DNA from: a virus
Virus record (IMG/VR): IMGVR_UViG_3300045912_000521
Coordinates: 1 to 35,622 of that record
Reading direction: 5' to 3' (one strand)
DNA length: 35,622 nucleotides
The notes beneath the pieces were generated by a model, which had not been told where the DNA came from, made no database searches, and saw only the letters and a list, made by a program, of their open reading frames with translations. Shown here piece by piece: positions 128 through 33,912 of the stretch (position 1 is its first letter; each line of letters begins with the position of its first letter). The position numbers were made by a program, and so were the translations under genes.

Positions 128-1351
128 TATGGTTTATTTGGTTCTGAAGAACGTGGACAGCAGTGGGCGCTGATGATCGGCCAGCTGACGGGAGTAATTG
201 AGAAACATGCCGAAGCGGCACAACGTGATACACTGGCAACCCAACAGCAATTGGACGCGTTTGCAGCCTATGAACAAGCCCAGCAGCAGCGTACTGAGTA
301 TGAAAGGCGGGCACAGGTAGAGCGCAACCAGATTGTCGCCGAATTTGCTGCTCAACGGGTTGAAATCGAACGCAATTATGAAAATAATCGAAAATCTCTG
401 CTTGCTCAATATGCCGAACAGCGTATACGTCTGATGCGTGATTTTACCCGTACCGAACGGCAGGCGGAGCAGGATTATTATCAAAACAGGCTCAAGTTGT
501 CTCAAAATTATCAGATTGACGTTCAGCGAGCAGAAGAAGATCATCAACGCCGAATGCGTCAGATACGCGTCGAACACGATGAACGGTTACAAGAATTAAT
601 TGAAAATCGAGACGCATTGGGTATTATTCGTGAAAAGCGATCTTACGAACGTCGGCGACAGGAAGAAGAAGAGACATATCAGATACAAGCCGCGCGTCGG
701 TCGGGGGATTTTGCTCGTCAAATACAGGAAATGGAAAGCCAGTTTGCTATACAGCGCCAGCGCCGTTTGGAGGATTATCGGCTGCAACTTGATGATATGA
801 CTGAACAGCACCGACAACGTATGGTGCAATTGGCTGCGCAGCGGACAGAGGAACTGAAACGATTAGATGAGCAACAGAGCAAGCGATTGCAACAGTTTGA
901 TCGCCAGTATCAAAATGAATTACAACAATTGCGCAATGCTGAGCAAAATAGACTCAATGTATTGCGAATGCTGGCATTGAATGATCAAGCCTTATTGCAA
1001 AAAACTGGTGCGGAGCTTACGGCACGATACAAAAACTGGTTGGAACAACAAGTACGAGGCTTTTTGGATACAAAACCGCAACGGCGTGCATCGGGGGGGC
1101 TGGTCAATGCCTGGCAGCCATATTTGGTAGGTGAGCAGGGACCGGAATTATTTGTGCCTGGAATTAGCGGTACGATTGTGCCAAATTCATTGACGCAATC
1201 TATGCTTACGAATACTCAGTATGGAAGGGGGGAAAGGGTTATTAATATGCGGGTGGAAACAAACAATCTCACGCTGAATCAGGTGCTGCGAGAAGTGGAA
1301 CGGCTGTTGGATCGTCATGACCGAAATCTGTCTCGCGCATTGGGAGGGTGA
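2..1351 (+). CDS. Tape measure protein, C-terminal part (joined protein about 698 aa)
   Basis: Position 5 equals position 35500, which is in the same frame as the ATG at 34750. There is a long Q/E/R-rich coiled-coil region (QRTEYERRAQVERNQ...). TGA at 1349-1351. Confidence 0.85.
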   Translation, partial: ALIGMGAAAGYSALSRTDLGAQRNLQAAPGQLATVAAYYSGRYGLFGSEERGQQWALMIGQLTGVIEKHAEAAQRDTLATQQQLDAFAAYEQAQQQRTEYERRAQVERNQIVAEFAAQRVEIERNYENNRKSLLAQYAEQRIRLMRDFTRTERQAEQDYYQNRLKLSQNYQIDVQRAEEDHQRRMRQIRVEHDERLQELIENRDALGIIREKRSYERRRQEEEETYQIQAARRSGDFARQIQEMESQFAIQRQRRLEDYRLQLDDMTEQHRQRMVQLAAQRTEELKRLDEQQSKRLQQFDRQYQNELQQLRNAEQNRLNVLRMLALNDQALLQKTGAELTARYKNWLEQQVRGFLDTKPQRRASGGLVNAWQPYLVGEQGPELFVPGISGTIVPNSLTQSMLTNTQYGRGERVINMRVETNNLTLNQVLREVERLLDRHDRNLSRALGG

Positions 1352-1352
1352 C

Positions 1353-1730
1353 ATGGCAGATTTCAGAATTGGGACTACGCAGGCAAATATGACGAATATC
1401 GAGCTGTTGCCTGTACCATTGCCTGTTCCGCGTTCCATATTTCGTGATTTTTCCGAAGCAGTTGTTGCAGCAAGCGGGCGGTCGTATGGTCGTGGTTTGC
1501 CGGTTTGTAAATGGGTATTTGCTATGTTAACTTCGGCGCAGCGGCAACAATTGAAATCCTACTGTATTGGATTGTCAGCAGTGGTGTATATCCGCACATT
1601 GGTCAATGATGATCAGTACTACAACTATCGTGCGATTATGCACTGGCCAATTGATGAAGAGCGTGATGCTTCTAAACGCCGGGATAGACTTGAATTTGAA
1701 ATTGAATTTACCCATCTGGAAAAACTATGA
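1353..1730 (+). CDS. Small tail protein of 125 aa, in the minor or distal tail position
   Basis: ATG at 1353 follows GGGAGGG, 1 nt after the tape-measure stop. The call rests on synteny only. Confidence 0.45.
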   Translation: MADFRIGTTQANMTNIELLPVPLPVPRSIFRDFSEAVVAASGRSYGRGLPVCKWVFAMLTSAQRQQLKSYCIGLSAVVYIRTLVNDDQYYNYRAIMHWPIDEERDASKRRDRLEFEIEFTHLEKL

Positions 1731-4543
1731 GCCGTGCTTTGACTTCTCAAGAATTGCAAATTCTTCGCTCTGATGGTTTAGCTGCGAAACTGCTTGCCGT
1801 TATTGATCAACCGGTTACGATATTTAGTTGTCGGGTAAATCAAAATTTTTCAAGCGGTGAACCGGTTGCACAAATTACTTATAACAATGCTAGTGGAAAT
1901 TTGAATAATGTCTTACCCGGTATGACGGTGCTGATCGGCAGTACTGCCGGTGCCTGGGATAAAGGACTGGCGCGGGTGCGGAAAACCTGGACAAGTACGA
2001 TTGCTTATATCAATGAAACAGCCGAAATTGAATGGTCGAATGGGCTTTACCTGACGGTGATTGATGAGTTTTCAATTTGGCCGCGGCATTTGCGGATGAT
2101 TGGCGAAACGCCATATATGGATTACGATATTCCATACAGTAATCAACACAGCAATTTTGATCCGATTGTTGTGATGGGACCAGATCGAGTCATTAGACTG
2201 AGTAGTGGGGGGGTGAATATTAATCTGGACGCGTCACAATCGTGGGTGTTTGATAGCACGATTACTCAGTACAATTGGGGAATTGTGAGTGGCAGCGGAA
2301 CATTAACAAATACAAATACCGCAATGCCAATTTTGACTGTAACTGTTGCGGGGCGGATTGTTTTGAAGTGCACTGTAACGGCGGCTAATGGGAAGAGCAG
2401 TACAGGTTATCGAACGATATATGTTTATGATGACAACACAATATTGACGGAAGTGCAATTAGACAACCTATCTGGTAGTTTGGATCAGGGTGGGTATGAA
2501 TTTAGCGTATCAATACCGAAATCGGTTTCGGTTGCACCGCGAGATTATTTGAAAATTATTTTATTTACCGAAGACTATCCACAACCCATTGGTTCTGTTA
2601 GTGGTGCAGAGAATATACTGGCTATCGGTTGGCTGGATGAAAGAGAATGTGTGATAGATGAACAAAGCGGCCAAAGTCAGTTAACTGCCAGGGGTGCGCA
2701 ATACTGGCTGGGGCAAATGATGGCTTTCCCGGCTGGTTTGGAGAACACAAATGGTACTCCAAAACAATGGACACAAATACAGGGATTGACAGTTGACAAA
2801 GCAATCTGGCATTTGTTGTATTGGCGCAGTACGCTGCCAAATTGTGTGGATGTCATATTGAGTGGAGACACTCGAATTGCGCCGGTGTTTAGGGCAGTAG
2901 GAACTTTGTGGCAGCAAATCAAATTGATTGCCGAAGAAAGTATCCTGGCAACGCCATTTTGCGATTCATATAATCGTTTTCTTTTGCAGATACATCCCAA
3001 CTTTCGGAATGCTGCTGCCAGAACAAATATTCCGATAATCATGTCGCTTTCAAAGGACGATTATGAGTCTATCGAAATATCAATTCGAAGCACAAATGTA
3101 GCGCAATATGAAGTTTCCGGCATTGGCCAAAACAATGAGCCAATTCTGGCTAAATCACCCGGTAAAGTTTTTGGGCGTTTCGGTCAGATACTCAGTAAAG
3201 AAGGACTTCTGTTCAGTAACAATCAAAATGCTTTGGAAACGGCCGGTTTGCTATTTACTCGTGAGAAACGGTTGTATGATTTTACAATTCATCTTATAAG
3301 TCCAAATAGGGTAATTAGTTTAGTGCCGTTTGGATTTTTATCTCTAGTAATAAATGAAGCGGATACACCAGCGAAGATAACTTTTTCTGGCAATGTCATT
3401 CCATATCGTGTTGAATATAGTTTTTCAAATGGGATATTGAAGCAAACGGTTTTTGCTGAACCAGAAGTGTTTCCAAGCATTGCTCAAAATATTATTGTGC
3501 CTGCGACACCGATTGTTGGCACACCTGAATTTTCTTTGCCGGATTTTGAGTTACCCACCTGGCCGGCATTGACGCCGGGGCGATTTTCGCCGCCTCTGAT
3601 ACCAGGTGATGACCCGCTGCCGCCGGAGGAAGGTGCGACTTGTCCGGTGAACGCTCTGGCAAACGGTCCGTTTATCTGGTCGTTGTTTTATACGCTGGTT
3701 GGGAACAGCACATATCGAGTCAATATACCGATTAAGGCTGTAATTCGATCTAGCAGCCATGATAACAAAACAGTATGGGGTATTCGGGGGCGATTTTTGA
3801 AACTGAACAGTGTTACCAACGTGTGGGAAGAAACGAACGAAAACGCGTTTTACAACATCTATGCTTACAACAGTGCCGGTCAGCGTGTGGCAACGGGTTT
3901 GAAAGATACTGTCACAGATTTACGATACCGTACCGGCACATTTCAACCGCCGGCAGCTACTGAGATTGCGTATGTTGGGGTAGAGATCGAGGCAGATTTG
4001 TTGCGGCCAACCAGTACACCTTACGCTTGGATAAGACTGAATCATTTTTGGGATGATTGGACAATTATCAATCCTGAATTTTCATGGGGATATTTCGGGG
4101 CGGGTATTTGGGCTTATGCTAAAAATGGTATGGCTTCACCAAATTACTCTTGGGAATGCGATTTATTGATTTGGATTGGGGGAGTTGAATTACTGAATGT
4201 ACCGTTAATAATCGAACAGCATGTATTTGCCTATCGGCCAGTTGACAAAAGCTTCAATACGGTCAGAGGCAAATTGCTTACGGACTGGTTGGGCTGGACA
4301 GATCTATGGCTAGTTGAATTAACTGAAAACCCATTTGCTACTCCAAAATGGCTATGGGAAAAAGGGAAAACAAGTTATGTAAATGGACGTAATGGAAACA
4401 ACGTGGACGCGGTTTTTGGTATCAATAATCCAGGTCAAATCTTTATGAATCAATTCATTTATGTCTGGCGGCAAGCCCGTTACAAAATCGAGTTGCAAAC
4501 TATTGAACTGTGGAATGTCTGTCCTGCGCCGAAGGAGGATTGA
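1727..4543 (+). CDS. Large tail-tip or baseplate protein (938 aa)
   Basis: ATGA overlap with the upstream gene. The call rests on its size and its position after the tape measure. There is an Ig/PKD-like stretch (ITQYNWGIVSGSGTLTNTNTAMPILTVTVAGRIVLKCTVTAANGKSSTGY). Confidence 0.6.
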   Translation: MSRALTSQELQILRSDGLAAKLLAVIDQPVTIFSCRVNQNFSSGEPVAQITYNNASGNLNNVLPGMTVLIGSTAGAWDKGLARVRKTWTSTIAYINETAEIEWSNGLYLTVIDEFSIWPRHLRMIGETPYMDYDIPYSNQHSNFDPIVVMGPDRVIRLSSGGVNINLDASQSWVFDSTITQYNWGIVSGSGTLTNTNTAMPILTVTVAGRIVLKCTVTAANGKSSTGYRTIYVYDDNTILTEVQLDNLSGSLDQGGYEFSVSIPKSVSVAPRDYLKIILFTEDYPQPIGSVSGAENILAIGWLDERECVIDEQSGQSQLTARGAQYWLGQMMAFPAGLENTNGTPKQWTQIQGLTVDKAIWHLLYWRSTLPNCVDVILSGDTRIAPVFRAVGTLWQQIKLIAEESILATPFCDSYNRFLLQIHPNFRNAAARTNIPIIMSLSKDDYESIEISIRSTNVAQYEVSGIGQNNEPILAKSPGKVFGRFGQILSKEGLLFSNNQNALETAGLLFTREKRLYDFTIHLISPNRVISLVPFGFLSLVINEADTPAKITFSGNVIPYRVEYSFSNGILKQTVFAEPEVFPSIAQNIIVPATPIVGTPEFSLPDFELPTWPALTPGRFSPPLIPGDDPLPPEEGATCPVNALANGPFIWSLFYTLVGNSTYRVNIPIKAVIRSSSHDNKTVWGIRGRFLKLNSVTNVWEETNENAFYNIYAYNSAGQRVATGLKDTVTDLRYRTGTFQPPAATEIAYVGVEIEADLLRPTSTPYAWIRLNHFWDDWTIINPEFSWGYFGAGIWAYAKNGMASPNYSWECDLLIWIGGVELLNVPLIIEQHVFAYRPVDKSFNTVRGKLLTDWLGWTDLWLVELTENPFATPKWLWEKGKTSYVNGRNGNNVDAVFGINNPGQIFMNQFIYVWRQARYKIELQTIELWNVCPAPKED

Positions 4544-6426
4544 TGACCGATTTGCGTGATGCGCTGGCAAAGCTGGTTGAAAACAAACAGGATGCCATTA
4601 CTGTTTATCCGGCGAGACTTGGAGATGGTTCTGGCAGGGTAATTGCCGGTGCAGGGCTGGTATATGTGCGTGTCGCCGATACGGTTACCATTGCGGTCTG
4701 TGCCAGTGTGCCGCCGATTCATGATTTGAATGTCTGGATTGGCTATGATCCAATTCAACCCAACATTTTGCGTGTCATCAGTCAACGCGATATAACCGGT
4801 AAGCAGGAATTTGCACCGGGGGTTTCGGCACATGCAGCGATGCATGAATTTATGGGAGCGGGATCACTCGGTGGTACGGATGTAGTCAAAGTACAGTTGC
4901 AGCAGTTTATGCCGCTGGCAGTCTGGCCGTATCAGGGGTTAAAAGTCATTATTTATCCCGGCGTTGTCTGGCTTGATACTCAGTACAAACTGATTGCTGA
5001 TACCAATCCATACGGCAAACCTGTACCAAAGGTTATTGATTTTGCTGAGTATCCATCGCCAAGTATTAACAAAGAAATGTATTACCTGATCGGCATTGAT
5101 AACACAGGTAATATCCAGGTGATCGGTGGCAATCAGGTAGATTGGGGGACGATTACACTAGCCGATATACCCGCTGTACCGGCTGGGATGAAATATCCAT
5201 TGGCAGCGGTACGGCGTGCATTTGAACAGGATGCAATTGTCATTAATCGAGAATCAACGGATATTGTTGACTTGCGCTTTCCGCTGGCACACAAGCATAC
5301 AGAGAACGATTTACCCAATAATGCTTTGAAAATTGGCGGGTATCCTGTGGACGTCAGCGGATTGACTGTGGGCAATACGTTGGTCTTCGATGGGACAAAA
5401 TTTGCACCGGGCGATGCCGTTGGTGGCAGTGGCGGAATACACTGGTACGTGGATGGATATCTTGAATCTGACAGTGTAATTGTTCGCTCTTATGTTGCGC
5501 CGCGAGATATGACCATCCGCAAAGTTTTTATGATGTTAGAGCAATTGGGAACAAGCGGAAACACTACGATTGACATTAAGAAGAACGGCACAACGATTTT
5601 TACCAATCCGACCAGCAAGCCGTCATTAGCGTACAACGCAAGCAACAGCGTAACAAGTGTAGTACCAGATGTAGTCAACGTGAGCGAAGGAGATATATTG
5701 ACGCTACACATAGACAGTGCAGCGGTTGGCGCAGAGGGATTAAATGTCATTGTTGATATTGGAAGCAGCAGCAGTAGTAGTGGTAGCAGCGGTTTTGATG
5801 TTGGGCTCGACTCACCAGTAAACTGGCCAATTTCCCCATACAACGAGGAGTTCGACGATCCGTTATCAAGTGAATGGATGGCAGTTAATCTAGGAAGCAA
5901 TACATACACCGTTGCGAATAGCGCGCTGATTGTGAATATGGCCGAAACGAGCAGTAGTAATGGACGTGGTGTTGTGAAGCCTATACCACCCGGATACTGG
6001 CGTTGTTATGCAAAAGTCGGGTTATCGGCCAGGTCACAGGGCAGTGCGTCTGATTGGGTGGCCTCTGGTGTCTTTTTGTACGATCAGAATAGTGGGCGTC
6101 TTTGTGTGCTTATCAACAATCGCAGTTATCAAAACAATGCGTTGAATATAAACGTAGAACTTTGGAATAGTTTTACTTCGTGGAACAGCAATCCCGTTAC
6201 AAACGAAAGAATGCAGTATTTCCACCCATATCTCATGGTGGCAAAAAAGTCCACCGGATGGGATTTTGGAATTTCTTATGATGGCGTTGCTTTTTGTATG
6301 ATATTGGATGATTACAATCTGACATTTCTGACGCCAACTCATATTGGATTGTTTTGTAATGCAGTAATTGGCTCAACATCCAAAAGCGTCCACACCATGC
6401 ACTGGATGCGTTTCGAGATTTTGTGA
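4543..6426 (+). CDS. Tail fibre or receptor-binding protein (627 aa)
   Basis: AGGAGG then ATG at 4543, overlapping the upstream TGA. It has a poly-Ser/Gly linker (SSSSSSGSSG) followed by a C-terminal globular domain. It lies within the tail module. Confidence 0.5.
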   Translation: MTDLRDALAKLVENKQDAITVYPARLGDGSGRVIAGAGLVYVRVADTVTIAVCASVPPIHDLNVWIGYDPIQPNILRVISQRDITGKQEFAPGVSAHAAMHEFMGAGSLGGTDVVKVQLQQFMPLAVWPYQGLKVIIYPGVVWLDTQYKLIADTNPYGKPVPKVIDFAEYPSPSINKEMYYLIGIDNTGNIQVIGGNQVDWGTITLADIPAVPAGMKYPLAAVRRAFEQDAIVINRESTDIVDLRFPLAHKHTENDLPNNALKIGGYPVDVSGLTVGNTLVFDGTKFAPGDAVGGSGGIHWYVDGYLESDSVIVRSYVAPRDMTIRKVFMMLEQLGTSGNTTIDIKKNGTTIFTNPTSKPSLAYNASNSVTSVVPDVVNVSEGDILTLHIDSAAVGAEGLNVIVDIGSSSSSSGSSGFDVGLDSPVNWPISPYNEEFDDPLSSEWMAVNLGSNTYTVANSALIVNMAETSSSNGRGVVKPIPPGYWRCYAKVGLSARSQGSASDWVASGVFLYDQNSGRLCVLINNRSYQNNALNINVELWNSFTSWNSNPVTNERMQYFHPYLMVAKKSTGWDFGISYDGVAFCMILDDYNLTFLTPTHIGLFCNAVIGSTSKSVHTMHWMRFEIL

Positions 6427-7937: not shown

Positions 7938-7988
7938 CCGCCAGTTATCCACCGGGTTGGACACATTAGAATGATTAGGAGTAGGAAG

Positions 7989-8840
7989 ATGGAGTGGCCA
8001 AAATCACCATTACCCGATTCCGTATATATCCCAAACGAAGCCGATAAGCGGCTGTTTGGCATTGACATTTCGGGGCATCAGGGTGCAATTGACTTTACCA
8101 AGATGTCTCAATACGCCTGGCCGAAAATACGCTTTATCGCTGCGCGGGCAACCATCAATTGGGGCTACAAAGACGCCTGGTTCAAGAGCTACTGGCGTTC
8201 GATCAAAGAGATACTCAGTATTCCTCGTGCAGCCTACGCGGTTTTGTACCCGCTGCAATCGGTCGCAAGGCAGGTTACCAACTTTGCTGAGCAGTTCGAT
8301 GCACAACGATTCGACGGTGACATTGTTGTGCCAGACATAGAACTCGATCATGGCGCAAGCCGGGCGCAAATCACGACTGCTGTGATCGAGTTTACTAATC
8401 GACTGCGCGACTGGGCAAAGAAACCGGCCATCGTTTATTCGCGCTTCACCTGGGTACAACAATTCATGGATTACCAATCTTCAAAAGCGGTCGATTTTAT
8501 TCAATCCGTGCCTTGGTGGATGGCGCAGTACCTGGCGAACCCACCGCGTGAGGATAACCGCGCGCTGGTGATTCCAAACGCGCTGAAAGGACTACGTTGG
8601 AACGTTGTCATACATCAAACCGGCGAGAAAGCGGCAGGATCGCTGTTCGGCGTTTCGAGTGCGCAGCTCGATACAAACCGCTGGCTGCTTGGAGAAGCCG
8701 AATTTAATGAACTTTGGGGCATACCCCGGGATACTGAGTATCCTGGGGCGCAACCGCAACCTATGCCGGTCGATGTGAGCGCGGAGCTGGCAGCGATCCG
8801 CGAGGCGGCGAATAGGATTGAAGCAAAGATCAAGCAATAA
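7989..8840 (+). CDS. Endolysin, glycoside hydrolase family 25 muramidase
   Basis: AGGAG lies 7 nt before the ATG at 7989. The N-terminal GIDISGHQGAIDFTKM motif is typical of GH25 lysozymes. Confidence 0.8.
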   Translation: MEWPKSPLPDSVYIPNEADKRLFGIDISGHQGAIDFTKMSQYAWPKIRFIAARATINWGYKDAWFKSYWRSIKEILSIPRAAYAVLYPLQSVARQVTNFAEQFDAQRFDGDIVVPDIELDHGASRAQITTAVIEFTNRLRDWAKKPAIVYSRFTWVQQFMDYQSSKAVDFIQSVPWWMAQYLANPPREDNRALVIPNALKGLRWNVVIHQTGEKAAGSLFGVSSAQLDTNRWLLGEAEFNELWGIPRDTEYPGAQPQPMPVDVSAELAAIREAANRIEAKIKQ

Positions 8841-9744
8841 CAAATTTACGTTTGTTTTTTGCCGTTCGCCTGGCGCTGTTGCGCAGATCTTCGCGGGATA
8901 GTTTTACGTAACGACGAATCGTTTTATCATCGCGATGGCCAATGCGCTTTTGGATGGTCAACTCTCCTTCACCAGCTCGATACATGTCCAGCACGTGCTT
9001 CCGGCGGAAGGCATGCAACATTACGGGTTCGACGCCAGCCAGTTTTGCCCGATAGATAATGACTGAGCGTAATCCATCATAGGTCAAGCGTTCTCGATAC
9101 CTGCTAATAAAAACTGCATTCGTGTCACATCTAGGGCGTACATTCAAATAGGCTTTTAGGGCTCGTTTTGTATCACGATCAAAGTCAACCGCGCGTGGAT
9201 AACCGCCCTTGCCCTTTTCTACGTACAAAACAGACAGCGGCAAATCGAGAGCGTCCAGGTCCAACATGAGCAATTCAGATGCCCGTAATCCGGTATTATC
9301 CAGCAGCATGATGATGGCTCGATCCCGGATGCCAGATTGCGTTTTATCACATGCTTTGAGGAGTGCCTCTACCGTTTCCCTGGAAACGGGATCAAGAATT
9401 TCTTCGGGAACCTTGGGCGCCTTGATTTTCCGTATTGGATTTTTCCAGTCTTTAGGCTCATACTCAGTATCATACCAGGTGAAGAATGCGTGTACAGCAC
9501 GGAAGAAGGCGTGTACGCCACCTGGCTTATGACCGGTTTTTAGTTGCAGCAGATAGTCACGAATCATTTCTTCGTCGATGGTAAAAATATCGGTCTTATC
9601 GACCCATTGACAGTAATTCACAAAATTTTCAAGTTTTTGCTTGTAAAAACGCAAAGAACCCGGCGAAAGGTTCTCGGATTCTTTAACTTTTATGAAATAT
9701 TGGGTCAGATATTTTATGGAAGTCCGCTGAGAATCGTTTCTCAT
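8830..9744 (-). CDS. int: Tyrosine recombinase / phage integrase (304 aa from the ATG at 9744)
   Basis: It has a SAM-like N-terminal domain, the C-terminal motifs HAFRRKHVLDMYRAG and GHRDDKTIRRYV (catalytic Tyr region) and RASELLML. The ORF-track extension to 9861 runs through a tRNA fragment. Confidence 0.9.
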   Translation of the reverse strand: MRNDSQRTSIKYLTQYFIKVKESENLSPGSLRFYKQKLENFVNYCQWVDKTDIFTIDEEMIRDYLLQLKTGHKPGGVHAFFRAVHAFFTWYDTEYEPKDWKNPIRKIKAPKVPEEILDPVSRETVEALLKACDKTQSGIRDRAIIMLLDNTGLRASELLMLDLDALDLPLSVLYVEKGKGGYPRAVDFDRDTKRALKAYLNVRPRCDTNAVFISRYRERLTYDGLRSVIIYRAKLAGVEPVMLHAFRRKHVLDMYRAGEGELTIQKRIGHRDDKTIRRYVKLSREDLRNSARRTAKNKRKFVIA

Positions 9745-9823
9745 TTTTATAACCGGCCTTTCATTTTGATACCCCCATATATGCCGGTTATCATCGAAAA
9801 AGAGCGCAAAACAACCAAATGTG

Positions 9824-9879
9824 TAGGGCGGGTGGGACTTGAACCCACAAGGTGTCTCCACCGGCGGATTTTAAGTCCG
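9824..9879 (-). other. attP core: the 3' part of a tRNA-Leu(UAA) gene (part of the anticodon stem, anticodon loop, long variable arm, T arm and 3' acceptor strand)
   Basis: The minus strand reads CGGA-CTTAAAA-TCCGC, then CGGTGGAGACACC, then GTGGG-TTCAAGT-CCCAC, then CCGCCCT-A. No matching 5' acceptor strand or D arm lies upstream. It is adjacent to int. Confidence 0.75.
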
Positions 9880-10203
9880 AACACCTGGTTGCTCTATATA
9901 TGGTAAAACGGCTCGTTTTGTGATGAATTTATGGCATATATGGCGGGTTGATTAAGGTTGTTTTTGGGTATCCTCTGTTTCTCACAACCATGATTTCATG
10001 ATTGAATCCCCACAAATACTCAGTATTCAGGGGGATTAACCCGGGTTTAATTCCTGATTCCTCCTTGTTTTAATATAGAACTCTTGTACTATTTTGGTAT
10101 GAAAGTGAGATTATATAGATATCGATCGGGCAGTCTGCGTGCCGTTGCGCTGGAGATTTTCGGCTGGACAATCCAGGTGCTGTGTTTTCGTGTTTTAGAT
10201 TAG

Positions 10204-10599
10204 TCATTTCCGCCTCTTCTTCTCTTCCATCTCCACCAGGAAGCGGATGTAATCCACCGCTATTTGTTTTTTCTCTTCGGGCAGCAGGTCGAGCAGGTGA
10301 ACCAGCTGCTGTTGGTACTCAGTATATGCCGGGGCGGGGGGAAGCAGCCCGGCGGCGCGGAAGACGGTTTCGGGGGGTACACGAAAGGCGTTTGCAATAG
10401 CAACACACAACTCATTTCCTGGGCCGCGAGCGCCAGTCAGGACGCCGTTAATGGCCGCTCTCGTTACTCCAGCTTCTCTGGCTAAATCCGCCTGGGATAA
10501 ATTGCGCTTACTCATCTCGGATTGAAGCCATTCAGAAAAGGGATATTTGTCAGCCATTGCTAACATTTTATCTTCAAGAACGTATGCTATGGTGGACAT
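10204..10599 (-). CDS. XRE/CI-type helix-turn-helix repressor
   Basis: The HTH is LSQADLAREAGVTRAAINGVLTG. It is transcribed divergently from the early operon and lies next to int. Confidence 0.85.
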   Translation of the reverse strand: MSTIAYVLEDKMLAMADKYPFSEWLQSEMSKRNLSQADLAREAGVTRAAINGVLTGARGPGNELCVAIANAFRVPPETVFRAAGLLPPAPAYTEYQQQLVHLLDLLPEEKKQIAVDYIRFLVEMEEKKRRK

Positions 10600-10614
10600 A
10601 GTGTAAATTGATAG

Positions 10615-10643
10615 TTGACAAATTCAGATACCGATGCTATTAT
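10615..10643 (+). promoter_or_regulatory. Rightward early promoter (sigma70-like)
   Basis: TTGACA at 10615-10620, a 17-nt spacer, then TATTAT at 10638-10643. GAGAGGAG and the ATG at 10690 lie downstream. Confidence 0.6.
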
Positions 10644-10689
10644 GTATGCAGCAGTTAACAATATGTAAGCAAACAAGAGAGGAGTCCTC

Positions 10690-10896
10690 ATGCCCGATCC
10701 TAATCAACTTATTCGTGTAAACGATGTTGAAGCCCTGGAGATGATCCGCACCCTGTCCGAACAAGACCTGCGCTCTATGGGCGCAGAAGTCGCCTGGCTC
10801 ATCCGCCAGGAATGGGCGCGGCGGTATTCGCGTCCCAATCCGCTCATCTCGGTGGCGGACGCGATGACGGCGGGGGAGAAACTCGATGAGGAGTAG
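10690..10896 (+). CDS. Small first early-operon protein (68 aa) in the Cro position; function unknown
   Basis: It has a strong RBS and is divergent from the repressor. No HTH was recognised by eye. Confidence 0.5.
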   Translation: MPDPNQLIRVNDVEALEMIRTLSEQDLRSMGAEVAWLIRQEWARRYSRPNPLISVADAMTAGEKLDEE

Positions 10897-10948
10897 GTTC
10901 TCAGGCGGTTGGTCGTAGTGGGATGTTCATTGGAAGGCAGGTAGATTG

Positions 10949-14927: not shown

Positions 14928-14948
14928 AAAAAAATCAGGAGCACTCAG

Positions 14949-19015: not shown

Positions 19016-19018
19016 TTT

Positions 19019-20506: not shown

Positions 20507-20508
20507 GT

Positions 20509-20626: not shown

Positions 20627-20641
20627 GAAGGATAAAAACAA

Positions 20642-21750: not shown

Positions 21751-21761
21751 AAGGATTGGGT

Positions 21762-22151: not shown

Positions 22152-22158
22152 GCGGTGG

Positions 22159-23529: not shown

Positions 23530-25079
23530 AAACTGATTTAACCGAGCGATTAGGTTCACTAATTCGAATGGCGCAATCGGCGAATGTGGCCTTATTTGGC
23601 CCCGGTGCACCGCCTCAGCCGTTATTGGATGATGAGCTGCCGCGTTTGTTTGAATATCAACCTGGTATCAATCTGGTTACTGTACCGCGGGCCGGCTTTG
23701 GTGTATTGCCGTTTTCAATTTTGCGTGCTCTGGCACAGACCAGCAAGGAAATCCGATTGAATATTGAGTTGATCAAACGCACAATACGCGGGCTGGAGTG
23801 GGACATTGTGCCGCGAGGTAAGGGAATAGACAATTATCAGGTTGGAACGGACGAGATAGTACATTTTTTCGAGCAGCCGGACGGCGTACATGACTTTGAC
23901 TCTTGGGTCAATCAATTACTGGAAACCCTGTTGACGATTGATGCGGTGACGATTTATCCAGATATTCAAGATGGTAAATTGGTATCATTGGACCTGGTAG
24001 ATGGTGCGACTATACGTCCGTTGCTTGATTTGCGCGGGCGTATACCCAGACCGCCGCAGCCGGCCTATTTGCAAGTGTTATACGGAATGCCGGCGACCCA
24101 TTATTCAGCAGATCGTCTAATCTATGCGCCGCTTAATACCAAGACGCATACGCCCTATGGAGAAAGCCCAATTGAGTGGGCATTGATGGCGATCAATACA
24201 GCGATCCGTCATGATGCGGTGCGGTTAGGGTGGTTTACGGAAGGCAACATACCAGGCGTACTGGTAAGTGTTTCGCCGGATTGGACACCAGAGCAATTGA
24301 CTACTTTTACCGAGTATTTTGACGCGCTGGCGAAGGGGGACATTCAGCGAGCCAGTAAAATCTTGTTTGTACCGGGCAATGGTGCGCAGTCCATTTTTCA
24401 GCCCCAGCAGGGGGATGCAGACAAAATTGAGGTAGATAAATGGTTGATGCAGGTAGTTTGCTGGGCGTTCGGCAACAACCCGGCGGAGTTTGGTTTAATT
24501 CCGGCCAGTGGGCTGGGAGGTTCAGGTTATGTTCAGGGTATGGAAAACGCGCAGTACCGTTCAATGATCGGTCCGATTACGGGTTATTTGAAGACGTTAT
24601 TTGATCGCATTATTCGTGATTACATGCGTCGTCCAGACTTGCAATTTAAGTGGATCGGTTTAGAACCGCCGGAGGATGAACTGCGCCGGGCGCAGATTGA
24701 CCAGGTATATCTATCAATGGGTGTGTACTCGCCGGCGTATGTACAGGATCGGCTGGGAGTACCGGTGGAATTTCGGGAAAGTTCGCCGGTGGTCGGGCTG
24801 CCTGCGCAGTTTTCATCTTTGTTTGAGCGGGCGATGAAATACGAGCTGCACCGCTGGCGGCAGAACGCGATTGCACTGAAGAAGGGCAAAACAACTGAAC
24901 AGTTTACGAGTGAAATTCTGCCGCTGGAGTTGCAAAACGAAATTCGGGTGCGGCTGAATTCCTGTCAAACGGCAGATGAAGCAGCAGTTTTATTTGACTC
25001 TATACTGAGCAGCGATTTGCAAAGGTCTTTGTTCCCCGTCCAGGAGGTCGGGGAAGCGCAGCCCTTTCGCTACCCGTGA
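23517..25079 (+). CDS. Portal protein
   Basis: It is 520 aa, overlaps the end of terL, and is followed by a MuF-type head morphogenesis gene. Confidence 0.75.
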   Translation: MDGMKTDLTERLGSLIRMAQSANVALFGPGAPPQPLLDDELPRLFEYQPGINLVTVPRAGFGVLPFSILRALAQTSKEIRLNIELIKRTIRGLEWDIVPRGKGIDNYQVGTDEIVHFFEQPDGVHDFDSWVNQLLETLLTIDAVTIYPDIQDGKLVSLDLVDGATIRPLLDLRGRIPRPPQPAYLQVLYGMPATHYSADRLIYAPLNTKTHTPYGESPIEWALMAINTAIRHDAVRLGWFTEGNIPGVLVSVSPDWTPEQLTTFTEYFDALAKGDIQRASKILFVPGNGAQSIFQPQQGDADKIEVDKWLMQVVCWAFGNNPAEFGLIPASGLGGSGYVQGMENAQYRSMIGPITGYLKTLFDRIIRDYMRRPDLQFKWIGLEPPEDELRRAQIDQVYLSMGVYSPAYVQDRLGVPVEFRESSPVVGLPAQFSSLFERAMKYELHRWRQNAIALKKGKTTEQFTSEILPLELQNEIRVRLNSCQTADEAAVLFDSILSSDLQRSLFPVQEVGEAQPFRYP

Positions 25080-25080
25080 C

Positions 25081-26196
25081 TTGGAGAAACAGGTTGAGCC
25101 GTATCACCCGGAATATGCAGCAAATCGGGTAAAAAGCGCGCTGGAGCGGGTAGAGGAAGATTTACAGCGTGATTTGATGCGCTGGTTTGCCGAATTCCTC
25201 GACGACCTGACAGGTGTGCAGAAAATAGCAAAAGATGAACCGCTGCCCGGCTTCCTGTTAGCCCGCTTAAATGACCAGATATGGTGGAAAACATGGAGCG
25301 AGAAATTATCCGAGATTTTGACCAGCAATATACTCAGCGCCATGAGAGTCGGTGGTCAGAGTGCCGGGCGTCAGTTGGGAATGAACCTGTCATGGGATTA
25401 CATTCAACCGGCTGCGGTAGAATGGGCGCGGCAAAACGCGGGTAAACTGGTAACCGGTATTTTACCGGATATACAAACGGACATTTCTCAGATAGTGATG
25501 GCTGGTTTGAGTGAAGGCAAGACAATTTATCAAATTCGAGATGAAATTGCCGGACTGCGGGATGATGCAGAGCGAGCCGTTTTCCCAGAGTGGCGGGCGG
25601 CTCGAATTGCGCGGACAGAAGTTATCCGTGCTCATGCCCAGGGAGCAAAACTCGGTTATCTGGAAAGCGGAGTGGTGAGCGGAATGCGCTGGCTGGACGG
25701 GCAGACGGGTGCGTGTCCAAAGTGTAGGGAATTGCACAACAAGACGATTCGTCTGGGCGAAAAGTTCTACATTGATCCGAAATTTGGTGATGGCTTACCG
25801 CCGCGTCATCCGCACTGCCGCTGCGCGGTTGCGCCGGTGACGCTGGATCAGGTCAAGTATCTACCGGCGGATCATCCATTGAGGGAGAATCGGCGAAACA
25901 GTATTGAGGAGATAACAGATATACAGGCTTATACTGAGATTGGAGGAGTACGGGTAACTGGTGAACGTTTGCGTCATGCTCAGTATAAGCATCCTGAAAT
26001 AAAAGGAATGATAGATATGATTCAGCGTGGTTTGCTTTCACCGGATGCAATAACGGACAAGGGAGAAGTTCGAGTATATCATATCGGTCTTAACCGAATA
26101 TCATCCCGTGGTAATCCGTTGTATTTCAATATTGCTGTAAGAATGGGAGAAAGTCCTTTTATGCTTACCAGCTACATTGCCCCAATTAAAAAGTGA
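25081..26196 (+). CDS. MuF / SPP1 gp7-type minor head protein with a C-terminal extension of about 118 aa
   Basis: RIARTEVIRAHAQG and GLPPRHPHCRCAVAPV are MuF hallmarks. TTG start. Sequence continues from about 25840 to 26196 beyond the canonical domain end. Confidence 0.8.
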   Translation: MEKQVEPYHPEYAANRVKSALERVEEDLQRDLMRWFAEFLDDLTGVQKIAKDEPLPGFLLARLNDQIWWKTWSEKLSEILTSNILSAMRVGGQSAGRQLGMNLSWDYIQPAAVEWARQNAGKLVTGILPDIQTDISQIVMAGLSEGKTIYQIRDEIAGLRDDAERAVFPEWRAARIARTEVIRAHAQGAKLGYLESGVVSGMRWLDGQTGACPKCRELHNKTIRLGEKFYIDPKFGDGLPPRHPHCRCAVAPVTLDQVKYLPADHPLRENRRNSIEEITDIQAYTEIGGVRVTGERLRHAQYKHPEIKGMIDMIQRGLLSPDAITDKGEVRVYHIGLNRISSRGNPLYFNIAVRMGESPFMLTSYIAPIKK

Positions 26197-28464: not shown

Positions 28465-29952
28465 ATGATTGAAAATCTTTCACAATTGACTCGTGAGGCA
28501 GTTGCCGAGTTTTACAAAGCGCTTGGCAAACCGATGCCGGCCGATGCGCTGAAGAAAGCCGGCGTTACTCAGGCAACTGGTCTGGTGGCTTACGATCTGC
28601 AAGCGCCCGCCAAGAATCTGGTGCCGGTTTTGACGCCGATCCGCAACCGGACGCCGCGTGTTTCCGGTGGTGGCGGCACGTCAACCAACTGGAAAGCGGT
28701 GGTGGGTATCAACACGGCCGGCCTGCGTGGCTTTGTGCCGGAAGGTGAACGCAATGGTGTAGTTACTACCGATGTTCAGGACAAGAGCGCACCCTATCGT
28801 ACCTTAGGACTTGAGGACAGCATCACTTTTGAAGCCGAACGCGCTGCGGTTGGCTTTGAAGATGTGCGCGCCACGCAAGCTCAGCGATTGCTCTGGGCCA
28901 CCATGATCGAAGAAGAAATTGCTGATTTGGGTGGAAACTATACCGTTCAGCTGGGAACGCCCTCAGCGCCAACCGTTACCACCGAAGCAAGCGGCGGCTC
29001 AATCGGTGCCGATACCTACAACGTGATTGTTGTAGCGCTGACGCTGTATGGTTATCTGTCATCCTCGCTGAGTGGTGGGGGGGTTGGTCAGGTCAGTGTC
29101 ACCCCGGCCAGTGGCGGTTCACCATTCACATACGGCGGCGGATCATCGAATAAATCCAATCCGACCAGCACCGGCGCTTTGACCGACTCGACCAATGTGA
29201 TTAAAGCCAAAGTGACCCCTGTAACGGGAGCTGTGGCTTACGCCTGGTATGTGGGTACCAGCGGTAATGAAGTGCTGCAAGCTATTACGACCGTCAATAG
29301 CGTTGTGCTGACCAGCCTGGTGACTTCCGGCCGGCAGAATGCCAGTGCAATTTCCGGAGATAACTCGCGCAATCTGCTCAGTTACGATGGTATTCTGTAT
29401 CAGGCCTGGACGAGCGGTTCTGGCGCTTATATCAAGGTAATGCCAGATGGGACTTTAGGGACTGGTACCGGGCTTTCCGCTTCTAATGATGGCGGCATTA
29501 CCGAAATCAATGAGATGTTCCGCTGGATGTGGGATAACTACCGGTTGTCGCCGACCCGCATCTATGTCAATGCGCAGGAAACAGACAATATCACTAAGAA
29601 AGTGCTCACGTCAACTGCGGCGCAGATTCCATACGTGACCGGTATGGAATTCACTGCCGGTATGCGTGTGAAGAGCCTGCTTAACCGCTTTGCGATGGGT
29701 GTGGCGCCAGAAGTTCCGCTGGAGATTCATCCCAATCTGCCACCCGGCACGCTGGTCGCGGTTACTGAGCAATTGCCTTACCCGATCAACGGCGTGCCCA
29801 ATGTGATGGAAATGCGCTTGCGCCAGGACTACTATCAAATTGAATGGCCACAACGCACGCGGAAATACGAGAGTGGTGTGTATTTTGACGGTGTCTTTGC
29901 TCACTATTTTCCGCCTTCCATTGGGATCATTACCAATATCGGCAATGAGTAA
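28465..29952 (+). CDS. Major capsid protein
   Basis: AAGGAG RBS. It is 495 aa, follows the scaffold gene and is followed by a hairpin. Confidence 0.75.
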   Translation: MIENLSQLTREAVAEFYKALGKPMPADALKKAGVTQATGLVAYDLQAPAKNLVPVLTPIRNRTPRVSGGGGTSTNWKAVVGINTAGLRGFVPEGERNGVVTTDVQDKSAPYRTLGLEDSITFEAERAAVGFEDVRATQAQRLLWATMIEEEIADLGGNYTVQLGTPSAPTVTTEASGGSIGADTYNVIVVALTLYGYLSSSLSGGGVGQVSVTPASGGSPFTYGGGSSNKSNPTSTGALTDSTNVIKAKVTPVTGAVAYAWYVGTSGNEVLQAITTVNSVVLTSLVTSGRQNASAISGDNSRNLLSYDGILYQAWTSGSGAYIKVMPDGTLGTGTGLSASNDGGITEINEMFRWMWDNYRLSPTRIYVNAQETDNITKKVLTSTAAQIPYVTGMEFTAGMRVKSLLNRFAMGVAPEVPLEIHPNLPPGTLVAVTEQLPYPINGVPNVMEMRLRQDYYQIEWPQRTRKYESGVYFDGVFAHYFPPSIGIITNIGNE

Positions 29953-31963: not shown

Positions 31964-32943
31964 TCAGCGGTAAAGGCATGTACCTGTGGAACATTAGCCG
32001 CAGCGAAGGCGGCGAAGCGGAGGCAATTGCCCGCGTTGCGGTCGAAGCCGGGTTGAGTCACGTACTGGTAAAGATCGCGGATGGCACGCAAACCTTCCCA
32101 TATCCGACTGCTACGAGCGCCCCAGAGCAGGCGCAAGCCGTGATTGATGCCCTGCGACGGTCCGGCATCCAGGCATGGGGCTGGCAATACGTGTATGGCA
32201 ACCAGCCGGAGCGGGAGGCAGACATTGCCATCCAGCGATGCACAGAATTAGGGGTTGACGGGTTCATAGTCAACGCCGAGGTGGAGTACAAGCACCGCCC
32301 ATCACAGGCAGAGCGGTACATGCGGCGGCTGCGGGGCGGGCTGGGTGAAATGCTGATCGGGTTATCGAGCTACCGTTTTCCCAATCTGCATCGAGAGTTT
32401 CCGTTCAATGCCTTTTTGGAAGGCTGCGATGTGAACATGCCCCAGGTTTACTGGATGCGGGCAACGAATGCCGGCGAGCAGTTGATGACGTGCATTGCCC
32501 AATTCCGACAATCATGGCTGATACAGAAGCCAATTTTGCCTACCGGATCGGCATTCCAGGAACATGGCTGGCGTCCGAGACCAACGCAAATTTTTGAATT
32601 TCTCGACACGGCGCGGAAAACCTGCGGTGGGGCAAATTTTTGGGTATGGGAGAACGCGCGGCGTCATGCCGAGCTTTGGGCTGCTATCCGGGATTATCCG
32701 TGGGGTGACACTGCCGTTGAAGCGCCAGTTGCAGCAGCCATACGACTGCGGGTCATCCCGCCAACGCTGAACGTACGATCGGGACCGGCGATGTCCCGCG
32801 CACTCTCTGGCAGCCTGAGCGGGGGAACGTTCGTCACTGTTGAGGCGGTTCACGTTGAGAATGCCCGGCGGGTATGGATCCGACACAGTGCCGGCTGGTC
32901 GGCCATGGTTTACGATGGCAGCGTGCTCATGCAGGAGGCGTGA
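31960..32943 (+). CDS. Putative cell-wall hydrolase: TIM-barrel glycosidase-like N-terminal domain plus a C-terminal SH3b-like domain
   Basis: GAAAGGAGGAG precedes the GTG at 31960. The C-terminal LNVRSGPAMSRALSGSLSGGTFVTVEAV...WIRHSAGWSAMVY resembles an SH3b cell-wall-binding domain. It follows the holin genes. Confidence 0.5.
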   Translation: MISGKGMYLWNISRSEGGEAEAIARVAVEAGLSHVLVKIADGTQTFPYPTATSAPEQAQAVIDALRRSGIQAWGWQYVYGNQPEREADIAIQRCTELGVDGFIVNAEVEYKHRPSQAERYMRRLRGGLGEMLIGLSSYRFPNLHREFPFNAFLEGCDVNMPQVYWMRATNAGEQLMTCIAQFRQSWLIQKPILPTGSAFQEHGWRPRPTQIFEFLDTARKTCGGANFWVWENARRHAELWAAIRDYPWGDTAVEAPVAAAIRLRVIPPTLNVRSGPAMSRALSGSLSGGTFVTVEAVHVENARRVWIRHSAGWSAMVYDGSVLMQEA

Positions 32944-33119
32944 TGGCAAAAACAATGTCATCCTCTGAGAAAATAGAATTGTGTCCGCTTTGCAACAAGC
33001 AATTGCGCCCGTCTAGGGACGGAAATAGCGTTAAGTATTTTTGCAATTGTAGTGGATATGACCGTCCTGTAATTGAAATCTTGAAAGAAGGAGAAAAACA
33101 AAATGGCAGCACCGACTGA
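32943..33119 (+). CDS. Small zinc-ribbon protein (58 aa)
   Basis: ATGA overlap with the upstream gene. The Cys pattern is CPLC...CNC. Confidence 0.45.
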   Translation: MAKTMSSSEKIELCPLCNKQLRPSRDGNSVKYFCNCSGYDRPVIEILKEGEKQNGSTD

Positions 33120-33912
33120 AAAAACGTTGAATTATGGCTTACGGTATGCTTGTGTGTTTGAATTGGACGCCAATGGCTATCCGAAAGCATCCGGAATAAC
33201 GGCATACGAAGGCGCGCAGTTCAAAGGAGCGACAGCATTTGATCTAACCTTACCAGACGCGCGTAAACTAACCGGCTTGGGCGAAGACGGCATTACCCAG
33301 GTCGTGTATTTGCCTCCCCAAGAGGGCGCCGATGCGCGTCTTAATGTTGAGGCAGCCGATCCTGTTTTGGCGGCATTGCTGGATGGCACGCGCGTGCTGA
33401 GCGTAGGAGAAGCATCCATTGTCGGCATAGCGACTGACAAACAGGGATTTGAGCCGCGCGTCGCGTTGCTCTTGTACCAGGCAGCAAAGGGATTGGAAAC
33501 CGGCAAAACATATTGGCACAGTTTCATCATTTCCTCCGCGCAGATTGTGCGCAAATCACCAGGCATGGGCGCAGACAAAGCGGTTACTCAGTATCAGGTG
33601 GCGCCAGGCAGGACGCAAAAACATCTGTGGGGAGCGCAGTTTAGCAATGCCAACGAAGGCTTTTTAGAGGCGCAGATCTTGGAATCCTGGAGCAATTACC
33701 CACTGCGGATCGCCTCGTATCTAGGTGATGGCAGCACCACGGTTTTCAATTTTCCAATTAATTTCCCGGCTGTGTCTACGGATGGGATCAAGGTTTGGAA
33801 AAACGGCACGGAAGTTACCACCGGTTTGACCAAGACGGTTACCGGGATTACATTCACAACCGCGCCGGCCAATAATGATGTCATTGTCGTTTTGCGTGAG
33901 GTTGCTGGATGA
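33103..33912 (+). CDS. Major tail protein with a C-terminal Ig-like domain
   Basis: AGGAG RBS. It lies immediately upstream of the G/GT chaperones. The C-terminal beta-rich domain is GDGSTTVFNFPINFPAVSTDGIKVWKNGTEVTTGLTKTVTGITFTT. Confidence 0.7.
   Translation: MAAPTEKTLNYGLRYACVFELDANGYPKASGITAYEGAQFKGATAFDLTLPDARKLTGLGEDGITQVVYLPPQEGADARLNVEAADPVLAALLDGTRVLSVGEASIVGIATDKQGFEPRVALLLYQAAKGLETGKTYWHSFIISSAQIVRKSPGMGADKAVTQYQVAPGRTQKHLWGAQFSNANEGFLEAQILESWSNYPLRIASYLGDGSTTVFNFPINFPAVSTDGIKVWKNGTEVTTGLTKTVTGITFTTAPANNDVIVVLREVAG

Follow-up and report, generated by a model that had tools for sequence, protein, structure and literature searches.

The window analyzed here, the 35,622-nt IMG/VR virus record IMGVR_UViG_3300045912_000521 at its full length, is the circularly permuted genome of a temperate siphophage of Anaerolineales (Chloroflexota); close relatives of its large terminase subunit (TerL) are encoded by prophages in Anaerolineales metagenome-assembled genomes (MAGs) and by IMG/VR contigs. 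The window carries many copies of the palindrome TACTSAGTA, in which S is G or C. The motif is private to the virus, is polar with respect to a putative replication origin and is tied to the gene of a primase-polymerase (PrimPol); its elementary form is an asymmetric unit with the core TACTGAG. The reading favored here, to which a probability of about 0.45 is assigned, is that the units may be recognition or priming sites of a primase on the lagging-strand template.

A recount yielded 24 exact copies of TACTSAGTA in the window, 11 of which extend to the 11-mer ATACTSAGTAT, in agreement with the initial annotation, which placed all sites correctly except one in the TerL gene that begins at 23266 and not at 23267; the partial copies it named are likewise all present. 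Its claim that the 9-mer occurs far above chance was borne out by shuffling controls that used a gene model built from codon statistics. Dinucleotide-preserving shuffles of the window gave 0.07 copies of the 9-mer (maximum 1) and 0.01 of the 11-mer, codon-order shuffles gave 0.14 copies of the 9-mer, and shuffles of synonymous codons within genes, which keep the proteins and the codon usage, gave 1.84 ± 1.16 (maximum 7 in 1000) versus 23 observed in coding sequences, so that neither the codon-preserving nor the dinucleotide-preserving shuffles give comparable counts. The motif is sharply delimited: TACTWAGTA does not occur in the window, the center never being A or T, and the single-base variants of TACTSAGTA are each present in at most four copies. 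The evenness of the spacing of the 24 sites is marginal (coefficient of variation 0.72 vs. 0.94, P = 0.07).

Thirteen of the 24 sites are read as xxT-ACT-SAG-TAY, encoding T[EQ]Y, nine as ATA-CTS-AGT, encoding ILS, and one as YSV, and a single site, at 10017, is intergenic; the last two numbers had been given correctly at the outset, while the first two had been counted as 14 and 8. The integrase and repressor genes, both on the minus strand, contain sites at 9461 and 10316, as first noted. Proteins of the window contain 18 T[EQ]Y peptides, with 2.3 expected from residue shuffles, and 16 ILS peptides, with 3.6 expected, and these peptides are encoded by the codons that are otherwise rarest, ACT in 15 of the 18 T[EQ]Y and ATA in 15 of the 16 ILS. 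Because synonymous-codon shuffles give 1.84 copies and the genes contain 23, the excess is a feature of the DNA and not of the peptide, as the initial annotation had held; it overrides codon usage and even shifts the amino acid sequence.

That annotation had treated the palindrome itself as the motif. Distant relatives, collected by alignment of a conserved 243-aa protein and designated here by L numbers, show asymmetric versions, and the palindrome is not elementary. Some clades of relatives carry the same palindrome, whereas others carry ATACYGAGC at similar density on both strands of operons transcribed in one direction (L209, L215, L223), and L229 carries the asymmetric word CCCC-N2-TTACTGAGC, again on both strands. 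The variants of the unit by clade thus comprise TACTGAGTA, ATACYGAGC, TTACTGAGC and also ATACCGAGC. A logo of the 711 unique TACTGAG units in the family is C-rich from positions -10 to -4, with W at -1, Y at +7 and A at +8. Sites of the palindromic clade are flanked symmetrically (G-ATACTSAGTAT-C), their shoulders being C-rich on one side and G-rich on the other. As judged from these alignments, the elementary signal is strand-specific, 5'-(C-rich)-N-W-TACTGAG-Y-A-3' (e.g., 5'-CCCNNNATACTGAGTAT-3'), and since relatives carry the asymmetric variants, TACTSAGTA is read as two overlapping units in inverted orientation.

The motif is specific to the phages and is not a property of their host. Among phages whose TerL is 78-89% identical to that of the window, L001, L003, L004, L015, L017, L019 and L020 contain 4-8 copies per 10 kb; L002, L016, L018 and L021 (TerL 81-86% identical) contain none or one copy and have a different early/replication module. 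The structural genes are motif-rich in L004 and motif-free in L018. In three Anaerolineales MAGs, the left prophage-host junction was reached via a conserved early protein. The host flanks, 23.3 kb in total, consist of housekeeping genes, among them those for ribosomal protein L25, MnmA, TrmI, a phosphate ABC transporter and a radical-SAM enzyme, and contain no copy of TACTSAGTA, whereas the adjoining prophage DNA contains 6.3, 8.7 and 7.4 copies per 10 kb, starting inside the repressor gene. TACYSAG was found seven times in the flanks versus about 11 expected by our arithmetic (four variants, both strands), and TACTGAG was found twice.

These counts bear on the analogy, drawn in the initial annotation, with the HIP1 octamer (GCGATCGC) of cyanobacteria and on its suggestion that the motif be counted in candidate hosts. 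As the three host flanks lack the motif and contain the 7-mer unit at or below the level of chance, readings akin to HIP1 or to uptake sequences are removed; a DNA uptake sequence (USS/DUS) should occur about once per kb in a competent host. A host-driven signature that the phage shares through amelioration has a formal likeness in its favor, namely a short palindrome at about 0.7 per kb, mostly coding and in several reading frames, and is scarcely credible in view of its absence from the host DNA beside three prophages and from other Anaerolineales phages. HIP1 is likewise a short palindrome, over-represented hundred-fold, located in genes in several frames and maintained by substitution and selection, but it is found throughout host chromosomes and is linked to a methyltransferase of the host, whereas the motif here is absent from the host, has an asymmetric polar unit and lacks a conserved methyltransferase partner. 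The C5 DNA methyltransferase encoded in the window was rejected as such a partner, since it was found in the window alone: no homologue occurs in any motif-rich relative sampled nor in any other related locus sampled. No record of TACTSAGTA as a genome signature was found in the literature.

A scan of viral sequences for two motifs 10-40 nt apart returned local pairs in unrelated phages only, with no genome-wide enrichment, and a three-motif scan of metagenomes for motif-rich chromosomes was dominated by tandem arrays and returned no usable host DNA. Many such arrays in metagenome contigs (L081-L200) contain TACTSAGTA, as runs of 7-nt heptads or with periods of 21-24, 32, 41-48 and 69-72 nt; those with the 69-72-nt period, e.g., in several Ga0307507 contigs, may be CRISPR-like. 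The arrays are unrelated to the phenomenon in the phages.

The polarity of the motif was determined with respect to an origin-like element in the early region, the surroundings of which are as follows:
19019-20506, plus strand: VapE/D5-type helicase
20509-20628: putative iteron replication origin, between the helicase and PrimPol genes
20642-21529, plus strand: PrimPol (AEP primase-polymerase) fused to a DnaG-type CHC2 zinc ribbon (Prim-Pol 4.7e-17, Zn_ribbon_DnaG 2.6e-11)
20661-21406, plus strand: cluster of five same-sense half-units (20661, 20779, 21083, 21163, 21400) and the full site 20872 in the PrimPol gene, beside the origin

The element comprises three copies of (G/T)(T/G)AGCAACC (GTAGCAACC/TGAGCAACC), a 51-nt AT-rich spacer and four inverted copies of AGGTTGCT(A/C). 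Different iterons are found at the same place in relatives: GGTTGGAC in L223, GTTGGAAC in L212, TGACAACC in L237, AGGTTTGG in L234, ATACCGCG in L201 and AAAACCTG in L208, and also AGGTTGGC. We infer that the iteron region 20509-20628 is the replication origin.

For the window, the units outside full palindromes were counted after the circular map had been split at the origin and its antipode. Right of the origin 17 solo units lie on the plus strand and 3 on the minus strand; left of it the numbers are 2 and 7 (Fisher p = 0.002). The initial annotation had seen no strand or positional polarity, which holds for the 24 full palindromes of the window but not for the half-units, which switch strand at the origin. 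Apart from the cluster in the PrimPol gene, the solo half-units are:
2198-2204, minus strand: TACTCAG
3958-3964, plus strand: TACTGAG
5045-5051, minus strand: TACTCAG
13807-13813, minus strand: TACTGAG, a full site decayed by one substitution and intact at this codon in L202, L208, L213 and L214
17350-17356, minus strand: TACTGAG
22748-22754, plus strand: TACTGAG
25003-25009, plus strand: TACTGAG
25331-25337, plus strand: TACTCAG
25932-25938, plus strand: TACTGAG
25979-25985, minus strand: TACTGAG, the only strict TACTSAG solo unit of the wrong sense within 20.6-34.4 kb
28566-28572, plus strand: TACTCAG
29763-29769, plus strand: TACTGAG
34425-34431, plus strand: TACTCAG

In the first set of relatives, solo units right of the origin are found 24 times on the plus and twice on the minus strand, and left of it 20 and 26 times (p = 3.6e-5). 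Since all flanking genes share one strand, constraints of transcription or of codons cannot cause the strand switch. The analysis was extended to 80 loci centered on PrimPol homologues and chosen by PrimPol homology. In 1-kb bins, the fraction of units on the plus strand lies at 0.37-0.42 between -4 and -1 kb, reaches 0.84 inside the PrimPol gene and is 0.52-0.75 further on. A sign test per locus, made on 57 non-redundant loci after removal of the PrimPol gene, gave 39 versus 5 right of the origin (p = 1.4e-7) and 21 versus 9 left of it (p = 0.043). The central base of the full palindromes across relatives, read on the plus strand, is G in 77 of 100 cases right of the origin and in 38 of 78 left of it. 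When all 7-mers were scanned in 699 kb from which the origin and the PrimPol gene had been excluded, TACTGAG emerged as the second most origin-polar word (367 co-oriented vs. 202, z = 6.9). On both sides of the putative origin the orientation of the units corresponds to the leading-strand sense.

In the 57 PrimPol-centered loci (L238-L316), certain T/G-rich 7-mers (TTTTGTT, GGGTTTT, TTTGTTG) likewise share an orientation that points away from the iteron region to either side. TTTTGTT occurs there 68 times on the plus strand to the right and 98 times on the minus strand to the left, as against 36 times on the minus strand to the right and 22 times on the plus strand to the left. The orientation of these words points to a strand skew of a general kind that is linked to replication.

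Leading-strand sense on both sides of the origin is also the orientation of Chi in E. coli. The units might accordingly be read by a travelling helicase-nuclease of the host or the phage and stop degradation or stimulate recombination of phage DNA, in the way Chi acts on RecBCD/AddAB, and such a polar signal would fit the recombination module of the phage (an ERCC4 nuclease, a RecT-like single-strand annealing protein (SSAP) and a PD-(D/E)XK exonuclease) and a density of sites that is held while the sites themselves turn over. This explanation appears unlikely. If the units were a Chi of the host, they would be expected in excess there, and the host flanks contain TACTGAG just twice. Several unit-rich loci lack the SSAP and the PD-(D/E)XK nuclease, no gene resembling those of RecBCD/AddAB was seen among the genes of the window, and the conserved cluster in the PrimPol gene beside the origin is left unexplained. 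Chi and the FtsK-orienting polar sequences (KOPS) resemble the present motif in being strongly over-represented words of 7-8 nt that are co-oriented with replication on both sides of the origin. They are, however, signals of the host chromosome, read by RecBCD or FtsK, whereas the motif described here is confined to a phage family, is absent from host flanks and clusters inside a primase gene.

The association with PrimPol goes beyond the position of the origin. The PrimPol gene of the window contains five half-units and one full site within 750 nt. Across 55 non-identical loci, nearly all PrimPol genes carry two to five same-sense units, the positions of which recur; this also holds for loci with a GC content >0.60 that are without the palindrome elsewhere. 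The positions of the units in the gene match T-E dipeptides of the protein, and their number appears to be far above what a neutral choice of codons for the conserved T-E would produce, which is estimated at about 1 in 8 per position. In the 699 kb of PrimPol-family loci TACTGAG is present in 569 copies, whereas words of the same composition have a median of 66 and the runner-up has 253; control phage loci that lack this PrimPol (458 kb) contain it in 25 copies, at rank 531 of 630. L016 has neither this PrimPol nor the motif. Besides PrimPol, which was the criterion of selection, only a small protein with a VWA domain is encoded in every unit-rich locus; it is the best-conserved early protein of the family (48-81% identity vs. 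about 40% for others), and PrimPol loci that lack it (L280, L314) have TACTGAG at the density expected by chance. The residues of the zinc ribbon are invariant in the PrimPol alignment (A3). Based on these observations, we infer that PrimPol is the reader of the motif and priming its function.

Other phage proteins were considered as readers and rejected. The SSAP, the PD-(D/E)XK nuclease and the DnaJ protein are each missing from some unit-rich loci, and the motif-rich L201 and L208 encode, in place of the VapE helicase, a 632-aa protein unrelated to it. The small terminase is equally distant in the motif-rich L202 (54% identity) and the motif-free L016 (52%). A repressor of the CI type was dismissed since its control region (repressor-cro, 10600-10689) is free of sites, even when two mismatches are allowed, its recognition helices vary among phages that share the motif, and the repressor of the motif-free L016 is as similar (43% identity) as those of motif-rich phages (38-55%; alignment A2). 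No protein divergence was found that separates the palindromic from the asymmetric motif types, the shared proteins all being 35-60% identical.

The same observations weigh on the possibility that the sites are dispersed binding sites of a dimeric phage protein that silences or organizes the prophage. Twenty-four sharp, dyad-symmetric sites spread across a temperate phage and absent from its host, with symmetric flanks and C-rich and G-rich shoulders, would fit such a protein, and there are precedents with at least 30 copies per genome, namely the stoperators of mycobacteriophage L5, the conserved inverted repeats (CIRs) of phiC31 and the 17-bp dyads of Cluster O mycobacteriophages (PMC9283540, PMC4351075). 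Nevertheless, a dimeric binder is unlikely, not only because neither the repressor nor the small terminase correlates with the motif and the repressor-cro control region lacks sites but also because half-site centers 6 bp apart would be unsuited to a helix-turn-helix (HTH) dimer, the asymmetric units of relatives lie on both strands within one-directional operons, and the polarity flips at the origin without a change in the direction of transcription. The Cluster O dyads and the Cluster A stoperators share with the present motif the presence of many copies of one short sequence, in their case more than 30, in the phage and not in the host. About one third of the Cluster O repeats lie within genes (PMC4351075); their function is unexplained, they consist of 7-bp arms and a 3-bp spacer, and no link to an origin has been reported. 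Stoperators are asymmetric; their orientation follows transcription, their sequence matches the early-promoter operator, and they vary together with the repressor. None of these features applies here.

How the sites evolve was deduced from relatives with about 73% nucleotide identity. Nineteen sites of the window align to at least one relative sampled; 10 of them are kept in every aligned relative and a further 5 in some, with the center sometimes flipping between G and C. Orthologous positions differ by substitutions and not by 9-nt indels, which rules out that the sites originated by insertion. At deeper divergence, about one site is retained in nearly every gene of about 1 kb, at codons that differ by clade, as in the ERCC4 nuclease (aa 197 or 213) and the PD-(D/E)XK nuclease (aa 52, 90 or 100). 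Conservation of the sites in related phages, proposed in the initial annotation as a check, is found for the enrichment and for many individual sites, with a turnover of positions at deeper divergence. Since sites turn over while about one per gene stays, the alignments indicate that selection acts on local site density and not on particular positions. The full sites, with the peptides they encode and their state in relatives, are:
292-300: TACTGAGTA, RTEY
1213-1221: TACTCAGTA, 11-mer, NTQY
2263-2271: TACTCAGTA, ITQY
3189-3197: TACTCAGTA, ILSK
4977-4985: TACTCAGTA, DTQY
8212-8220: 11-mer, GH25 lysin gene, ILSI; kept in L048
8732-8740: 11-mer within the longer near-palindrome CCCCGGGATACTGAGTATCCTGGGG, DTEY
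9461-9469: 11-mer, integrase gene (minus strand), DTEY
10017-10025: 11-mer, sole intergenic site, between the repressor operon and int
10316-10324: HTH repressor gene (minus strand), YTEY; same codon position in L201, L202 and L208
12021-12029: 11-mer, membrane-protein gene, ILSI; kept in L201, L202 and L208
12395-12403: STEY
12769-12777: LTEY; L001 is one substitution away
15356-15364: 11-mer, ERCC4 nuclease gene, aa 213, DTEY; aa 197 in another clade
16409-16417: end of the RecT-like gene, ILSN
16594-16602: PD-(D/E)XK nuclease gene, aa 52, STQY; aa 90 or 100 in relatives
17752-17760: DnaJ-domain gene, aa 203, ILSN; kept in seven relatives, down to 42% protein identity
20100-20108: 11-mer, VapE helicase gene, ILSI; center changed from C to G in L003 and L019
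20872-20880: 11-mer, PrimPol gene, aa 77, DTEY; kept in five relatives
23266-23274: TerL gene, YSVH; also in the motif-poor L002, L016 and L021
27852-27860: ILSK; kept in L004
30141-30149: 11-mer, ILSM; kept in L004
31315-31323: 11-mer, ILSM; center flipped in L003
33585-33593: VTQY; kept in L004

Because motif-poor phages have it too, the TerL site is probably ancestral or constrained by the protein. The intergenic site at 10017 is located in a longer inverted repeat, AATCCCC-N19-GGGGATT (region 10000-10045), near the likely attP, and has a counterpart in L048 at 6661.

The evolution of the sites would in part agree with a mutational drive, in which a nuclease or repair system turns near-cognate sequences into the motif through biased gene conversion in heteroduplexes, without benefit to the phage. 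Sites arise through point substitutions, modules of differing ancestry all gain the motif once they reside in a phage of the motif type, and the window encodes nucleases and a C5 methyltransferase. The methyltransferase is not shared with the motif-rich relatives, however, and a drive of this kind, which we regard as quite improbable, predicts neither the polarity about the origin nor the PrimPol cluster nor a compensatory turnover that maintains about one site per gene. Nor did the variants with a single mismatch show a directional depletion in the counts made here.

In the mechanism proposed here, replication would start at the iteron origin directly upstream of the primase gene. The lagging-strand template would be the plus strand for the rightward fork, right of the origin, and the minus strand left of it, such that 5'-TACTGAG-3' would be present on the template on both sides. 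The cluster of same-sense units within the PrimPol gene would supply the first priming sites, and the dispersed units, about one per 0.7-1.5 kb of lagging-strand template per fork, would be the sites at which Okazaki fragments are primed; the small VWA protein (18425-19015) may assist the primase. As a site of this length is rare by chance, selection would write it into coding sequence, mostly as T[EQ]Y or ILS, and in the palindromic clade one site would serve both strands. Correctly oriented units are on average about 0.7-0.8 kb apart, the widest gap measuring 2.0 kb right of the origin and 3.2 kb left of it, and a spacing of about 0.7-0.8 kb is on the scale of Okazaki fragments. The left side might, speculatively, be crossed by forks in both directions, first during early bidirectional and then during rightward rolling-circle replication, which would fit the weaker polarity and the prevalence of palindromes there.

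The proposal derives from the position of the units on the presumed lagging-strand template and from the precedent of a long site in phage NrS-1, the PrimPol of which depends on an 8-nt template sequence that occurs once per strand near the center of the genome (PMC7102993). Like the present phage, NrS-1 and T7 (gp4, 5'-GTC-3') encode a primase with a dedicated template-recognition module, and the site of the NrS-1 enzyme is likewise strand-specific and several nucleotides long. The single copy per strand in NrS-1 lies near the presumed origin (PMC7102993); the units here cluster beside the origin on what would be the lagging-strand template. Unlike the 2 copies in NrS-1, there are dozens per genome in the present family, written into coding sequence at a cost in amino acids, and in one clade, in contrast to NrS-1 and T7, the sites are palindromic. 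In addition, the NrS-1 enzyme contains a helix bundle, whereas the present PrimPol combines the AEP domain with a DnaG-type zinc ribbon, and its priming role at the units is a proposed one.

Several observations speak against assigning the units to a primase. Polarity is weak left of the origin, where 43% of the units overall are on the plus strand and the centers of full palindromes are distributed 38:40, and the 24 full sites of the window show no polarity of the central base. The counts across relatives are uncorrected for phylogeny and hence not phylogenetically independent. Co-occurrence of motif and PrimPol is partly by design because the loci were chosen by PrimPol homology; L263, L279 and L282 have PrimPol and the VWA protein and yet a low density of TACTGAG, and the PrimPols of phages that share an identical 9-mer are only 40-80% identical to each other. 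For most characterized primases 3-5 nt suffice. The symmetric flanks of the full palindrome would suit a dimeric binder of double-stranded DNA as well, and the leading-strand sense, being the same as that of Chi and KOPS, does not alone identify a primase.

A further explanation is that the units are nick sites, as in T5, phiKMV and tf, where a phage nickase would interrupt a single strand at the units in packaged DNA. In phage tf, 14 nicks are found on one strand at TACT/RTGMC, and variants (TACTATGAC) occur at similar positions in related phages (PMC3517423). The unit here is also TACT followed by a purine, its variants co-vary with the phage clade, and right of the origin almost all units are on one strand (24 vs. 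2 in the first relatives). Like the tf, phiKMV and T5 sites, which are repeated 4-14 times and largely on one strand, it is a phage-specific word of about 9 nt with a consensus that co-varies between related phages and with conserved positions. The known nicked phages are virulent, however; here a temperate phage has units on both strands left of the origin as well as palindromes, at a density 2-5 times higher. Cutting both strands of a full palindrome would risk a double-strand break, there is no nickase gene with which to compare, and nicking does not predict an association with PrimPol and the origin, except where it is itself a by-product of priming. Nicking is thus rather improbable as the function of the units. 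The priming reading can be extended to the whole family, which would have rewritten its genomes, in codons and amino acids, with origin-polar priming sites of 7-9 nt at Okazaki spacing, palindromic in one clade; this broader proposition is put forward with somewhat more reserve than the priming role itself.

The remaining genes of the window are arranged as follows:
1-7.9 kb: tail genes
7971-8840: GH25 lysin
8830-9861, minus strand: integrase
10204-10599, minus strand: HTH repressor
10690-10896, plus strand: Cro-like 68-aa protein
10946-11704, plus strand: C5 DNA methyltransferase
13308-14039, plus strand: conserved 243-aa early protein
14718-15710: ERCC4 nuclease
15685-16425: RecT-like protein (SSAP)
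16439-17182: PD-(D/E)XK nuclease
17145-18014: DnaJ-domain protein
18425-19015, plus strand: small VWA-domain protein
21756-22151: small terminase
22069-23529: TerL
23517-25079: portal
from 25081: head and connector genes

The 68-aa protein in the Cro position matches no family; by eye it resembles a ribbon-helix-helix protein, with a short N-terminal strand (LIRVNDV) followed by two helices. The methyltransferase gene, an open reading frame (ORF) of 252 aa, may be truncated or split, since just positions 49-174 of the 324-position profile are matched. The 243-aa protein has 248 homologues at E<=1e-20 and no match in PDB, Pfam or PHROG. Its AlphaFold2 model (pLDDT 88.7) consists of a beta-rich N-terminal and a helical C-terminal domain, for which Foldseek returned only weak OB-fold matches (the N-terminal domain of MCM and a single-stranded DNA-binding protein (SSB)); according to the model, it is probably a phage SSB and not a sequence-specific reader of the motif.

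A transfer RNA (tRNA) gene on the plus strand at 14770-14837 (Rfam, 44.3 bits), missed by ARAGORN, underlies the N-terminal extension of the ORF 14718-15710. Relatives of the ERCC4 protein are 251-254 aa long, and the start of the ERCC4 gene is probably later than called, given the tRNA under the extension. Upstream of the tRNA, two T-arm-like repeats, TGATGGGTTCGAGTCCCAT, are found 89 nt apart (14254-14272 and 14343-14361) in a gene-free stretch of about 500 nt. L317, a short contig that comes from a different sample and codes for a protein identical to the 243-aa one, lacks this stretch. In L202 (JARKPB010000008.1), the prophage TerL at 18847-20732 is annotated with 794 aa and matches PT-HINT and Intein_splicing, and it appears from these matches to carry an intein; tblastn of the window TerL onto L202 gave a match that spans residues 170-464 only. 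The related phage contig L214 contains ten tandem 45-nt repeats (…CAAGCCAACCGGCAGCG…) at 8117-8530, which are probably a repetitive coding region.

No description of a virus-private motif that is polar about an origin was found in the literature, and even if the reader were a nickase or a Chi-like system, such a motif would be new; if the present interpretation is correct, it would be the first genome-wide motif that is both replication-polar and private to a virus. What had appeared to be a curiosity akin to HIP1 becomes a connection, open to test, between the primase of a phage and a sequence signal that spans its genome. One practical consequence is that motif enrichment in a phage cannot serve to assign its host. 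If the proposal holds, the origin, the direction of the forks and the specificity of the primase could be read from the metagenomic sequences of uncultured phages, and a natural set of 7-9-nt primase sites with clade variants would be at hand for structural work on PrimPol and its zinc ribbon. Should the units be priming sites, the specificity of a primase would be a major force on viral coding sequence, in which T[EQ]Y and ILS are enriched 4- to 8-fold.

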